Virus record (IMG/VR): IMGVR_UViG_2778261418_000018
Span: 1 to 36,850 of that record
Strand: one strand, 5' to 3'
Source: a virus
Taxonomy: Duplodnaviria > Heunggongvirae > Uroviricota > Caudoviricetes
Length of the DNA: 36,850 nt
The position numbers and the translations under genes were made by a program. This document shows positions 29,086 to 34,800 of this stretch, one piece after another. The notes beneath the pieces were generated by a model. That model saw only the letters and a list, made by a program, of their open reading frames with translations, was not told where the DNA came from and did not search any database. Every line of letters begins with the position of its first letter. Position 1 is the first letter of the stretch.

Positions 29086-31869
29086 TTATTTTTTCTTCTC
29101 GCTATTGCCTTTGTCCTGCAACAGACCCGCCTTGTGACGTGCGCGTTCAGTGGTTTCATTGATTCTCTGTGCGTGCTCTGCGTCACGGATGGCGCGCAGC
29201 ATGTCAGAAAGCACGGTAACGGGGGGGTTCATGGTGTTCTGGTCCTGCTGAAGTGTGGATACCAGGCGTGCGGCGGCTTCGGGGTCTGATGCCCCCAGCT
29301 GTTCCAGATAGCTGGCGACCGGGTTATGGCGGATCTCCGTGCTGCTTACGCCGTGATTACGGCTCAGGCGCTGCCAGAGCTGCGTGATTCGGCTGTCCGG
29401 GCGGGTATCCGGTTTGCGTACAATTTCAAATCCCTGCGGTGCAATGATGCTGCCGTCAACGTACAGGCTGCCGCCCCGTAACAGGTGCTGCATCTGCTGT
29501 TCACCGATATGCAGGCCGAGAGATTCAGCAGATTCCCGCCATTCTTTAGCGAGTAATTCGTGGCTATCAGGCAAAGGCCGCTGCTGTTTGCGGCTCTGTG
29601 TCCAGCTCTGCATTTCATCACTGCTGTTTTTTGCCTGTTTGTCACGCAGCGAACGCATCAGCGCCCGGCGTTCGTGCCGTTTCAGTGAGCGCATCCATTC
29701 ATCCACATCAACGCCGTCAGGAAGCTGCGGCCACGGTGCTGGCCGTTCTTCCGGCTGTTCTGTCCCGTTGTTGTCCGTTTCCTGTACACGGGGACAGTTA
29801 TTGCCACGAGTCCAAGGGGCGGCAGGGCCGCCCTGAAGGTCAAAACCATTTTCGCGGGCGCTGTCTTCCGCTTCCGGTTTACGTCTTACCAGCTTCCAGT
29901 TATCCGGATGTGTGCACACACGGGAAGACTCCCCGATGAGTGGTGACCAGATCCCGTAAATCTGTACGCTCTGTTCGCCGTAATCGTTCAGCTCATCTGC
30001 GAGGTCGTAGGCGGTGCGAATCAGGTAGTCTTTGCGTGGAACAAGTACGCCGCCCTGTTTTTCAATGTAGGAGGCAAAACACCCGGCATCAGCGGCAGCG
30101 AGCACTGCATCCATTGCGTCATCCTTCAGCCGTTGCGGGCCTTCCGGGTTGCGTGCCATCTGGCTGGCAAGGCGGCGCAGTTCACGCCACACCTGACGGG
30201 AGGGGATGCCAAAGAACTGGAACTGGCGGACCCGGTGAAGGCGCGCCCAGCCGATGGCGCGCTCCACGCTCTCGGCCATTGATTTTCCGGTTTCGTGGTC
30301 AACGCGTGGCTTGCCCGTTTTCGGGTCGATACCATCCACGGCGCGGCTGTCCAGGTTCTTTCCGATGTAGGTGGCGATGTAGCTGGTTGGCGTGCCTTTT
30401 GAGCCGTCGACGTACTCCGCTTTAAAACGCGGAGTTATGTCATCGCCCAGCTCGTGGCGGTCTTCCTGAATGGCAATATCGCAGACGTGGGACACGATGG
30501 TTTCAATCTCGTCCGGATGTGCAAAGACCATCATATGCCAGTGCACAGTGCCGTCATGGTGAGGCTCCACCGTGCGGATGCCATACCAGCGAAGACCGTC
30601 GCGGTTCAGTTTTTTGCGGACCGCCGCAAAAAACGTGTTAACCAGGTAATCGCTGGAGTCGCGCATGGTGGCCCCGTTCCATTTGGGATTCGGATGACCG
30701 TTCTCCGTTGTTGCGTGGTATTTTGACGGGCAGGTGACAGTCAGAAACACCGCTCTGTCGCCACGGGCTTCGGCCTGAAGTTCCAGCCCCTTCATGGTGG
30801 CCATCATTTCTGCCTTACGGTGAACCGGGTTACTTACTCCCGCGTAATACACTGTATCGAGATCAATCGTGAACCCGTCTTCGTTTTCCAGCATGAAACT
30901 TTTCAGGAAATCGCGTGTTTTCTCGCGCTGTGCGCGAAACTCGCTTAACGCGTCCTGGCTCAGATAGGGCGATGTTTTTCTGGAAACCAGACAGGCGGCG
31001 CGGAGTTGTTCTTCTCTCCACTTGCAACGTAACAGCCACAGTTTGCGTTTCCACCATTCTGCACAGGTCAGGCGAAGGATTGCGCCCGGCAGCAGCTCCG
31101 TGTCCGGTTCGTTCCTCCGGTCTTTGTCTGTTGTCAGTGCGTCATAATGCGGAGGCATGGCGTGCAGGTGTAACGCCATGCGGGCCAGCATCTGATACGC
31201 CTTCAGCGTTACATCCATGGTCAGCTCGCCATCAGTCGCGCCAAAGCCATCGCAGAGTTTTTCGAAGGTGCTGCTGAACATCGCCGCCGTCATGGTGGCC
31301 AGCGTCTGTATCTGGTGTTTGTTGAGCTGCGGCAGGTAAAGCAAATCATCCAGGCGTTCGCGTCCGGCAAGGGAGCGATAACCCGGTGTCAGCCAGCGGT
31401 GGTCGGTGCGGTCCAGACGTTCGAATATTTTGCGCAGGGTTCCGCGCGCGTAGCGTTCAGCCTGCCAGCTCTTTTTGCCTTTCTGACGATCGGCTTCCTG
31501 CTTCTTGCGCAGAAAAGAGAGGTGGCGGCTCAGAGGTTCACGCAGATAAACGGGAAGCACCTTCAGTGTGGCAAAAGCACGGGCCACCGGGTCTTGTTCT
31601 GTTGCCTGACGCTTGCTGATGATGCTTTGTGTCAGCTTTTCACGCTGTCCGGCTTCCTCAAGGGATGCCATGAGTTTTTTACCCACGGTGGATTGTGCGA
31701 AAAAGGCTTCCTCCTTCGCTTCCTGTTCTTCCAGGGCCTTTTTGTCTGCTTCAAGGTAGTAACGGATGGCGCGTTGCATGTCGGTTTCAGTTTCCTGCCT
31801 GCGCTCCGTAAATCTGGCCGGATCAATGGCTGGCCGTGGTTCATTCCAGCTCCATGCAAACTCACTCAT
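29086..31869 (-). CDS. A: replication initiation endonuclease A (rolling-circle)
   Basis: Large basic protein in the P2 A position; start at ATG 31869 overlapping upstream stop (ATGA). Confidence 0.8.
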   Translation of the reverse strand: MSEFAWSWNEPRPAIDPARFTERRQETETDMQRAIRYYLEADKKALEEQEAKEEAFFAQSTVGKKLMASLEEAGQREKLTQSIISKRQATEQDPVARAFATLKVLPVYLREPLSRHLSFLRKKQEADRQKGKKSWQAERYARGTLRKIFERLDRTDHRWLTPGYRSLAGRERLDDLLYLPQLNKHQIQTLATMTAAMFSSTFEKLCDGFGATDGELTMDVTLKAYQMLARMALHLHAMPPHYDALTTDKDRRNEPDTELLPGAILRLTCAEWWKRKLWLLRCKWREEQLRAACLVSRKTSPYLSQDALSEFRAQREKTRDFLKSFMLENEDGFTIDLDTVYYAGVSNPVHRKAEMMATMKGLELQAEARGDRAVFLTVTCPSKYHATTENGHPNPKWNGATMRDSSDYLVNTFFAAVRKKLNRDGLRWYGIRTVEPHHDGTVHWHMMVFAHPDEIETIVSHVCDIAIQEDRHELGDDITPRFKAEYVDGSKGTPTSYIATYIGKNLDSRAVDGIDPKTGKPRVDHETGKSMAESVERAIGWARLHRVRQFQFFGIPSRQVWRELRRLASQMARNPEGPQRLKDDAMDAVLAAADAGCFASYIEKQGGVLVPRKDYLIRTAYDLADELNDYGEQSVQIYGIWSPLIGESSRVCTHPDNWKLVRRKPEAEDSARENGFDLQGGPAAPWTRGNNCPRVQETDNNGTEQPEERPAPWPQLPDGVDVDEWMRSLKRHERRALMRSLRDKQAKNSSDEMQSWTQSRKQQRPLPDSHELLAKEWRESAESLGLHIGEQQMQHLLRGGSLYVDGSIIAPQGFEIVRKPDTRPDSRITQLWQRLSRNHGVSSTEIRHNPVASYLEQLGASDPEAAARLVSTLQQDQNTMNPPVTVLSDMLRAIRDAEHAQRINETTERARHKAGLLQDKGNSEKKK

Positions 31870-32255
31870 GGCTGGTATCCCGTCACGTGCTGCCACTCCA
31901 GCGAGAAGAGGGTGGAAAGGCGGTTAAATTCAGCGGTGTATTCACTCAGCGAGGCACACCCGCCAGCAGTGCGATGCGCCAGCATTGCCGCAAATATGGA
32001 GGCCGGGGAGTCGTAATACGCCAGCAGTGATTCGCCGTGTGGTGTCAGGCAGTGCAACGCCAGCCCATGTGGTGTGAAGTCCACGCGGTAGCAGTCGTCT
32101 ACTGTGAAATAAAGGGTGTCTGCATTCTCCGGTTTTGTGGTGCGTGCTCTGTTGTCACGACCACGGATGTAGAGATCAAATAATCCCTGAAGAACGGGAG
32201 CCATACGGGTGTCCTGTGTGCGCACCCATCTTGTGAAGTCATGAGCGTCAATCAT
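31866..32255 (-). CDS. hypothetical early protein (129 aa)
   Basis: ORF translationally coupled to A. Confidence 0.5.
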   Translation of the reverse strand: MIDAHDFTRWVRTQDTRMAPVLQGLFDLYIRGRDNRARTTKPENADTLYFTVDDCYRVDFTPHGLALHCLTPHGESLLAYYDSPASIFAAMLAHRTAGGCASLSEYTAEFNRLSTLFSLEWQHVTGYQP

Positions 32256-32363
32256 GCTGCAATTCTCTCTACTAAGGATGTGCGAAGGCTTCCTGCCAAA
32301 AAACTCAGAAGCGGTCGGTTACAGGAATTGGCGTTCTACGAGTAGTTATTGCTGGCTTGAGGT

Positions 32364-32582
32364 TCATTTCTGTTTAATTCCGTGCATGCTGTAGAAGAAA
32401 TCAAAAGTGTTATCTATGCGTATCATGAGCTCACGCTGCATCGCTTCTGGTGTTTCTGGTTCACCTGGTGAGCCAACGCCCGCGAAGAAATCACCGATCT
32501 CGCTTTGAATAAGTACCTTTAGCGTTGCTGAGGAATTCATGCGTGTGCGGTGATGTCTGCGAGTGATTCTTCTACTGCTCAT
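32364..32582 (-). CDS. hypothetical early protein (72 aa, basic N-terminus)
   Basis: ATGA overlap with upstream ORF. Confidence 0.45.
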   Translation of the reverse strand: MSSRRITRRHHRTRMNSSATLKVLIQSEIGDFFAGVGSPGEPETPEAMQRELMIRIDNTFDFFYSMHGIKQK

Positions 32583-32782
32583 TTGCGTGGATCCTGTACC
32601 TGTCGGATAAGATTCACCCGCGCCACATTAGTGGCGCAGAAGTAAGTGCCGTCAGTGAGATAGATGTGGTGTGCATCCTTTTCTGAGCGGTGTTTGTCGA
32701 TTGTGGTAATCAGGCGTTCGTCGACTTCGTATTCACGTCCTCTGGAGGTGAAACGAACGACAGGAAAATGCTTAATTGCCAT
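32579..32782 (-). CDS. hypothetical early protein (67 aa)
   Basis: Strong RBS AAGGAGG before ATG. Confidence 0.55.
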   Translation of the reverse strand: MAIKHFPVVRFTSRGREYEVDERLITTIDKHRSEKDAHHIYLTDGTYFCATNVARVNLIRQVQDPRK

Positions 32783-32889
32783 TACGCCTCCTTGGGTGTG
32801 CGAATACCTCTGCGAATGCAGATTGTGTTCACATTTTCTTATTTAAGATGGGGTTTTATTTACGCTGTTATTCGCCAGTGAAAAAGCGT

Positions 32890-32982
32890 TCAATCTTTTT
32901 TTACTGAATTAATAATTCGCATAATACCAATTGCACAGACCACCGAAATAATCAGAACAATCCATGATATAAATATACTCAT
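32890..32982 (-). CDS. 30-aa hydrophobic membrane peptide MSIFISWIVLIISVVCAIGIMRIINSVKKD (not in the ORF track)
   Basis: ATG overlaps stop of upstream 80-aa ORF (ATGA); single predicted TM helix with basic C-terminal tail. Confidence 0.5.
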   Translation of the reverse strand: MSIFISWIVLIISVVCAIGIMRIINSVKKD

Positions 32983-33221
32983 GCGATATTTCCCAGTTTG
33001 TACGGCTCAATATGCTCCCCGCATTCTGCGGCGCAGATAAGCTCAGAAAGTTCGTTAAGTGCATCCAGATCGTCAGCGTAAAAAGCCACGTCATACAGAC
33101 TCCGGATAGCCCTGGTCAATGAGTCACGGGCTGCACGTTCTGAATGAGCGCCTGATGCGCTTAAGCGAAAATAAAAACGCTCAAGTGCTTTGTTGATGAG
33201 AGTTTTATATTCTTTATCCAT
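32979..33221 (-). CDS. hypothetical early protein (80 aa)
   Basis: ORF in early operon. Confidence 0.5.
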   Translation of the reverse strand: MDKEYKTLINKALERFYFRLSASGAHSERAARDSLTRAIRSLYDVAFYADDLDALNELSELICAAECGEHIEPYKLGNIA

Positions 33222-33232
33222 CGCAACACCCT

Positions 33233-33511
33233 TTAATCTGCTTTCTGAATTTCAGCTTCTGAATCCATGCAGATAATTTCGATATAGGGTTCATCGCCAT
33301 TAACCTGACGAGATTTTTCGGCTTCGCTAATTATTTCGCGAATGGTCTGGTACGGAAGCTCTACAGTCAGGCGTGTACCGTTCAGATAAACGTAGGTAGC
33401 TGCGTTTTTTTCAGATGGAACTACTCCGTCAATAGCTGATGCGCGTAATAACAGTTCACCGCGAAAATCAATAAAGCGGATAAATACACCTTGTGCATGG
33501 TCTTTAGTCAT
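33233..33511 (-). CDS. hypothetical early protein (92 aa)
   Basis: Start at ATG 33511 (MTKDHAQG) with RBS AGGTG. Confidence 0.5.
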   Translation of the reverse strand: MTKDHAQGVFIRFIDFRGELLLRASAIDGVVPSEKNAATYVYLNGTRLTVELPYQTIREIISEAEKSRQVNGDEPYIEIICMDSEAEIQKAD

Positions 33512-33521
33512 AAAGCACCTG

Positions 33522-33872
33522 TTATAAATCAGCCTGTTTAATAAAACTTTGCCCACGAAGCAGACGATCGACTGAGCGCAGTGCTTCGTACAATGTGAAA
33601 TCCTGCCCGAACTGATTATCGCCGCTGCTTAATGCAAAAATGCGGTTTCCGGTAAACGGATTGCGTGGGCATCTGTGAACCACGATTCCAGCTTTCTCAA
33701 TCAGCCAGGTGTGTTCGCCGATTTGTGTTACTGCGTGCCCATCTGGTGTTGCGTGCGTCTCGTTCAGGTTATAGCGACTGTTACTACGTGATGCACTGGT
33801 AGCGACGTGGTGTACATGGCGTTCTACGCCATTACGAAATTTGAAGTATGGATTATTAGCATTTTTTTTCAT
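33522..33872 (-). CDS. hypothetical early protein (116 aa)
   Basis: ORF in early operon. Confidence 0.5.
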   Translation of the reverse strand: MKKNANNPYFKFRNGVERHVHHVATSASRSNSRYNLNETHATPDGHAVTQIGEHTWLIEKAGIVVHRCPRNPFTGNRIFALSSGDNQFGQDFTLYEALRSVDRLLRGQSFIKQADL

Positions 33873-33893
33873 GATGATGCTCTGTTCATTGTT

Positions 33894-34097
33894 TTAGCTG
33901 TTAGCCAAAGCGTCTTTTAACATCGCCACAAGGTTTACTTCAGGCTTTTCCATTTTGGCGCGTTTGGGGCGGATAATAATTCGACCGTCAGCCAACATCT
34001 TTTTGCATGTATTAAAAGGGATACCTGTTATCTCTGCATATTTCTGCAGGGATACATAGGGGGCATTCACATGGATATTGATGGTTATACCTGACAT
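33894..34097 (-). CDS. Cox/Apl-like small HTH DNA-binding protein
   Basis: APYVSLQKYAEITGIPFNTCKKMLADGRI resembles P2 Cox IPYQEFAKLIGKSTGAVRRMIDKGKL (as recalled). Confidence 0.55.
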   Translation of the reverse strand: MSGITINIHVNAPYVSLQKYAEITGIPFNTCKKMLADGRIIIRPKRAKMEKPEVNLVAMLKDALANS

Positions 34098-34113
34098 CCC
34101 ACTAGCCTCGTGA

Positions 34114-34320
34114 TCAGGAAGATTTGTTTTGTTCTTTCTGGGTTAGCTCTAGGCCGCGAAGGAAGATCATGCGCGCCATGTTAGAGGATGAGCGTTGTTC
34201 TTTAGCTGCCATTTCATCAATGACGGCTCGCTCCTCGAGTGACAGCCGAAGTGCCAGTCTTGGACCTGTGGCGGTGTTACGCGGAATGCGTGATCTGGTA
34301 TCGTGAAGAACTTGTTTCAT
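34114..34320 (-). CDS. ribbon-helix-helix type small regulator, first gene of the lytic (early) operon
   Basis: LRLSLEERAVIDEMAAKEQRSSSNMARMIFLRGL fits beta-strand/helix/helix RHH pattern. Confidence 0.5.
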   Translation of the reverse strand: MKQVLHDTRSRIPRNTATGPRLALRLSLEERAVIDEMAAKEQRSSSNMARMIFLRGLELTQKEQNKSS

Positions 34321-34395
34321 AGTGGTATATTGTGATCATCTAATAGCTCGTGAAATCATTTTGGTATCAAAAAAGATACCTGTCAAGGTTTTTGT
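34321..34395. promoter_or_regulatory. immunity switch region with divergent promoters and operator dyads
   Basis: 75-bp spacer between divergent early and repressor genes; dyad GGTATC-AAAAAA-GATACC at 34363..34380, TGATCA palindrome at 34332..34337. Confidence 0.55.
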
Positions 34396-34800
34396 ATGAA
34401 AAATGATATTGGTCAGCGGTTGCGTGAGGAAAGGGAAAGATTGGGACTTAGTCAAGTTGCTATGAGCGACATTGGTGGAGTCAAAAAGCTAACTCAGCTT
34501 AGATATGAGAAAGGAGATAGCTTTCCTGATGCTGCGTATTTGGCAGCGCTGTCTCGTTTTGGCCTTGATGTTCAGTATGTTGTGTTGGGAATTCACTCAC
34601 CTGAAACTTATAACGATGATGAGCAGGAGCTGATTACTCGCTTTCGAGCAGCTTCGTTAGATGTGAAAAACGCCGTGATCGGGGCTTTAAAAGGTGCGAT
34701 CAGTGAAAAGGAAACTCAGCCATCAGGACGTGAGTTAAATATTTCTGGTGGTAATAACCGTATCGCTGGTCGTGACTATAACGAAACTAAGGGTAGGTGA
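34396..34800 (+). CDS. immunity repressor, XRE/CI-type HTH
   Basis: IGQRLREERERLGLSQVAMSDIGGVKKLTQLRYEKG HTH; position upstream of int as for P2 C. Confidence 0.8.
   Translation: MKNDIGQRLREERERLGLSQVAMSDIGGVKKLTQLRYEKGDSFPDAAYLAALSRFGLDVQYVVLGIHSPETYNDDEQELITRFRAASLDVKNAVIGALKGAISEKETQPSGRELNISGGNNRIAGRDYNETKGR

Follow-up and report, generated by a model that had tools for sequence, protein, structure and literature searches.

The seven small open reading frames (ORFs) that precede replication gene A in the DNA analysed here form an ordinary lineage-specific early operon, not a new kind of system, in which a conserved five-gene core adjoins two variable slots and is followed by what is probably a divergent DUF5405-type gene. 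The window, that is, the whole stretch of 36,850 nt analysed (positions 1–36,850 of IMG/VR record IMGVR_UViG_2778261418_000018), represents a P88-like (Xuanwuvirus, Peduoviridae) prophage of the P2 family, with 88–93% DNA identity to P88-like phages and a match at 99.8% identity in an Escherichia coli chromosome (strain STLEFF_47). Parts of the stretch are matched in 1414 of 5426 complete E. coli genomes, O26:H11 strains included, and close variants of these genes are also found in Salmonella Typhi. The genes and their order are common to the P88-like phages (P88, 520873, 503458, P884B11, Chuche, PhiR44_2 and Citrobacter phiSM), with protein identities of 78–100%, and the annotations of P88, 520873 and Chuche give a gene order identical to that of the array in the window.

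All seven ORFs lie on the minus strand and run in one direction from a Cox-like gene to A (Table 1). The initial annotation announced six ORFs in its title and listed seven in its text; they are indeed co-directional real genes, and the correct number is seven. Only one promoter-like site was present within positions 31700–34500, upstream of an Arc-like ORF that has no PGAP call in E. coli genomes. A terminator scan and an Rfam search of the minus strand inside the array, including both intergenic gaps, returned nothing convincing, and signals missed by such simple scans could lie in the two gaps of ~107 nt. We consider it likely that the array belongs to the early lytic operon of this P88-like prophage, as its promoter-proximal part; after derepression, a single transcript would then start at the promoter 5' of the Arc-like gene, pass the Cox-like gene and all seven small genes, and continue into A.

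Table 1 Features of the putative early operon and replication gene A in the window.
Feature	Coordinates	Strand	Basis and remarks
Candidate sigma-70-like promoter, TTGACA-17-CAAAAT	34358..34386	-	Consensus match only; likely early (Pe-type) operon promoter
68-aa Arc-like ribbon-helix-helix ORF, first gene of the operon	34114..34320	-	phrog_3431 'Arc-like repressor', E 9.8e-29
67-aa Cox-like excisionase/repressor	33894..34097	-	phrog_575, E 1.8e-27; weak BLASTP match to 186 Apl
o116, DUF4761, core gene 1	33522..33872	-	PF15958, E 1.1e-64; phrog_2492
o92, small beta-rich protein, core gene 2	33233..33511	-	ATG start
o80, DUF4754, core gene 3	32979..33221	-	PF15946, E 7.5e-54
Small single-pass membrane peptide gene, core gene 4	32868..32982	-	30-aa reading here (32982-32890); canonical 37 aa
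Intergenic gap, peptide/o67	32783..32867	-	3' end is the AAGGAGG ribosome-binding site of o67
o67, core gene 5	32579..32782	-	phrog_3459, E 2.9e-45
o72, short variant gene	32364..32582	-	phrog_4144, positions 34-97 of 99 only
108-nt intergenic gap before o129	32256..32363	-	Sequence
o129, divergent DUF5405-type (probable)	31866..32255	-	phrog_3237, E 3.7e-58
Replication gene A, 927 aa from ATG at 31869	29086..31869	-	Pfam Phage_GPA, E 8.6e-129

Five of the genes (o116, o92, o80, the membrane peptide gene and o67) constitute a lineage-specific conserved core, being syntenic in all of the 80 best-matching IMG/VR loci, a comparison set chosen with o80 itself as query. Among 50,697 phage records, o80 occurs in 14, all of them P88-like, and o67 occurs in the same 14; deep searches with the array proteins likewise led to very small families. 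The first core protein, o116, passes the DUF4761 model (PF15958) with 215.5 bits against a cut-off of 27, over model positions 1–105 of 105, and an exhaustive phmmer search recovered no more than 25 representatives from 1.84 billion; its conserved domain spans approximately residues 46–111, with distant relatives that are standalone proteins of 67–71 aa. The most constrained ORF, o80, passes DUF4754 (PF15946) with 180.4 bits against a cut-off of 27, over positions 1–80 of 80, and is 96–100% identical across the 80 loci that it was used to select. The statement that no ORF contains an assignable motif thus stands for functional motifs, none of which was found in any ORF, but not for family assignment, as o116 and o80 already belong to Pfam families. 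DUF4761, DUF4754 and DUF5405 are all families of unknown function, so membership names these genes and explains nothing, and a literature search found no paper on any of the three.

For o92, no Pfam match appeared at E values up to 10. Its structure model has a small beta fold common to many uncharacterised phage proteins, and a Foldseek search of BFVD retrieved many phage proteins of 60–110 aa (E 2e-4 to 2e-2), several carrying the label 'flagellar and swarming motility protein'; N4 gp27 reached a TM-score of 0.82 (normalised to target length). FlbD/SwrD-like small beta proteins and the LytTR/RemA-type DNA-binding beta fold are uncertain candidates for its structural kin. A longer GTG reading of o92 (107 aa) would overlap o116, and annotators use the ATG instead. 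The membrane peptide of related loci is MSIFISWLVLIISVACAIGIMRIIHSVKKIERFFTGE, with synonymous variation, and o30 is a homopolymer-frameshifted copy of this 37-aa peptide: an A-run of seven is present instead of the six in relatives, and the peptide is read as 30 aa here because of the extra A. The corresponding gene in STLEFF_47 is marked 'frameshifted' by PGAP. In addition to its own family, o67 matches positions 84–135 of phrog_19053, whose positions 162–243 match the MarR-like protein usually found 3' of o67.

Two variable slots adjoin the core, one between the membrane peptide gene and o67 and the other between o67 and the gene before A. The distance across the first is ~114 nt here versus ~425–560 nt elsewhere, where the extra DNA carries genes of phrog_9338, phrog_26764 or phrog_21900. 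In the second, a MarR-like winged helix-turn-helix (wHTH) gene (81–88 aa), not found in the window, directly follows o67 in 59 of 73 loci, and the short form, o72, does so in the other 14. Between o67 and A, P88 itself carries the MarR-like gene, a 99-aa Ead/Ea22-like gene, a 76-aa 'derepression' gene and an SPFH-type lipoprotein gene, all four of which are absent from the window; compared with P88, the window has a short architecture with o72 in place, and a 129-aa instead of a 121-aa allele before A. Unrelated to the MarR-like gene, o72 occupies its usual place and is coupled to o67 by an ATGA overlap. Over residues 10–63, o72 shares ~50% identity with the C-terminal half of a 99-aa protein that P88-type phages carry under the label 'Ead/Ea22-like', and on sequence grounds o72 is a short, exchangeable variant of the C-terminal domain of this 99-aa family, located in the slot after o67. 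On the Ead_Ea22 model (PF13935), the 99-aa relative itself scores only 20 bits against a cut-off of 27, at its residues 21–49; o72 has no Pfam match and lacks the N-terminal part in which its relative scores on that model.

Comparison with the early operons of P2 and 186 places the array in a familiar context. The P2 Pe operon (cox-orf78-B-orf80-orf81-orf82-orf83-A), from the same phage family, has the layout of the window, with a Cox-like gene, a small co-directional run and A, and overlapping stop/start junctions occur in both; the window has an additional Arc-like gene ahead of cox. The 186 pR operon (apl-cII-fil-dhr-CP79-CP80-CP81-CP83-orf84-A) is similar in that its small early genes lie between that for the excisionase/repressor and A. 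The initial annotation described this position as one of small genes for regulation or for action on the host, and the 186 record, which has cII, fil and dhr at this point, agrees. In gene content the operons differ. Had the array consisted of known P2-like accessory genes, each ORF should have matched one; o129 alone links to the orf81/orf83 family, and six of the seven small genes lack a detectable P2 relative, profile–profile comparisons finding no relation to P2 B, Orf78, Orf80 (DUF2732) or Orf82 (DksA-like zinc finger), of which the window carries no counterpart. The nearest approach to a relationship was that of o80 to P2 B, with a BLASTP E value of 0.005 in a database of 19 sequences, but the hhalign probability for this pair was just 1.7–2.1%; other P2 comparisons gave <2%. 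The window also lacks homologs of 186 cII, fil, dhr, CP79, CP80, CP81 and orf84, and comparisons of its ORFs with CII, Fil and Dhr gave hhalign probabilities of at most 2% and BLASTP E values of 0.77 or worse. The core occupies the place of P2 orf78-B-orf80-82 and of 186 cII-fil-dhr-CP79-81.

Our best guess assigns the core genes to the early programme of the phage itself (regulation, accessory replication functions or fixed host-takeover steps) rather than to swappable anti-defence cargo. The initial annotation had put the ORFs forward as candidates for anti-defence or host manipulation, and some or all of the small proteins might indeed be early factors that disarm immunity or shut down host processes, as do Fil and Dhr of 186. 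They are small, predicted to be early, lineage-restricted and devoid of known functional domains; the equivalent position in 186 holds a cell-division inhibitor and a host-replication inhibitor; a 37-aa membrane peptide that is conserved, and a fold of o92 that recurs in many small orphan proteins of phages, are what one would expect of effectors aimed at the host; and variable insertion slots adjoin the array genes. We nevertheless regard this reading as rather unlikely. No ORF resembles fil or dhr at the sequence or profile level, and nothing found here points positively to anti-defence or host manipulation, a search with PADLOC, whose models are of defence and not anti-defence, giving a single weak match at chance level. 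Exchangeable cargo is the usual pattern of anti-defence loci, whereas five of the seven genes form a core that keeps the same order in every related locus and is under purifying selection, with the exchangeable spots beside them. Such conservation is compatible with host-takeover or anti-defence roles.

The junctions between the genes are also highly conserved. Overlaps of the ATGA type are present at 32979–32982 (o80/peptide), 32579–32582 (o67/o72) and 31866–31869 (o129/A), and an AAGGAGG motif lies 5 nt ahead of the o67 ATG at 32782, all exactly where first reported. Across the related loci, the ATGA junction is retained in 80/80 cases after o80, in 73/73 after o67, regardless of the gene that follows, and in 25/25 between o129 and A; the spacers between o116 and o92 (10 nt) and between o92 and o80 (11 nt) are constant. 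Pooled pairwise dN/dS values were 0.20 for o116, 0.19 for o92, 0.05 for o80, 0.20 for o30, 0.13 for o67, 0.58 for o72 and 0.24 for o129. Taken together, the invariant ATGA junctions, fixed spacers and dN/dS values place the arrangement of the array beyond chance, and the sequence comparisons identify all seven ORFs as coding, with the weakest constraint on o72. That some or all are chance open frames in leader or intergenic DNA before A is accordingly very improbable: o30 is just 30 aa long and frameshifted relative to its homologs, the constraint on o72 is relaxed and PGAP marks its O26:H11 counterpart as partial, but the other six ORFs have dN/dS values of ≤0.24, junction geometry is constant across loci, the 37-aa peptide varies synonymously, and all seven ORFs are members of PHROG or Pfam families or of large exact-sequence clusters, with o72 or a 90% variant of it on >1000 contigs, Salmonella Typhi included. 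The fixed 10–11-nt spacers and the three overlaps would hand ribosomes on within the pairs o80/peptide, o67/o72 and o129/A, and each overlap would make expression of the downstream gene hang on its upstream partner.

The last gene of the array, o129, is probably a divergent DUF5405 protein, of the family of P2 Orf81 and Orf83, with an N-terminal extension of ~45 aa. Neither o129 nor the other 129-aa alleles matched the Pfam DUF5405 model at E values up to 10, and, when only the 129-aa alleles were compared with DUF5405, hhalign gave non-significant probabilities of 0.5–4.5%; the link therefore rests on transitivity through a 121-aa allele and on synteny. In other P88-like phages, the product of the gene ahead of A is a 121-aa protein that matches o129 over its full length (BLASTP E 3e-6; hhalign 73.7%, E 2.9e-5, 105 columns) and belongs to the same PHROG. 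One 121-aa allele (P0220) scores 26.5 bits on DUF5405 (PF17399; cut-off 21.6) and five others 13–18 bits on the same model, and hhalign of the 121-aa allele against DUF5405 gave 94.5% (E 7.4e-8); the joint profile matched Orf81 at 79% (E 1.6e-5) and Orf83 at 48% (E 1.9e-4). Directly before A, the 129-aa allele is found in 25 of the 80 loci and the 121-aa allele, which ends 6 nt ahead of the A start instead of overlapping it, in 48. The AlphaFold2 (AF2) model of o129 has a pLDDT of 74 overall and of 81–92 for residues 51–120. The name inositol monophosphatase, given to o129 by NCBI and UniRef and borne by most members of its 90% cluster, is almost certainly wrong, since o129 matches no Pfam (E up to 10) or NCBIfam family, a fold search with it found no inositol monophosphatase structure, its homologs connect to DUF5405 instead, and inositol monophosphatases are about twice the size of this 129-aa protein.

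In P2 it is orf83 that lies immediately ahead of A and overlaps it, and o129, as a DUF5405-type gene in that position, would be its counterpart, set apart by the N-terminal addition and by a divergence too great for a direct Pfam match. In 186, CP83 is the DUF5405 relative of Orf83, and orf84 stands between CP83 and A; among early-operon elements, we found only the gene before A to be common to the window, P2 and 186. The 186 record describes its DUF5405 homolog as 'unknown function; not essential'. According to the same record, A appears to be translated only if translation of orf84 proceeds to its end, a dependence that offers a model for the ATGA overlap of o129 and A: synthesis of A would likewise require translation of o129, and o129 probably works with A or for A. 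Alleles of o129 and A go together at least in part through simple genetic linkage; in one locus (L021), o129 and residues 1–45 of A are joined to a different A allele.

What this analysis yields is modest: the early operon is mapped cleanly gene by gene, an invariant core is separated from two exchangeable slots, and a propagated misannotation is corrected from 'inositol monophosphatase' to DUF5405-type protein. The prophage family to which these genes belong is among the commonest in E. coli, and they make a short, defined set of candidates that deletion, toxicity and anti-defence screens could take up. It is a tentative idea, to which we give limited credence, that at least one core protein (DUF4761, o92, DUF4754, the 37-aa peptide or o67) is a dedicated host-takeover or counter-defence effector with a mechanism not yet described; if so, that effector would be very widespread in E. 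coli, because the prophage family is present in about a quarter of complete genomes of the species.

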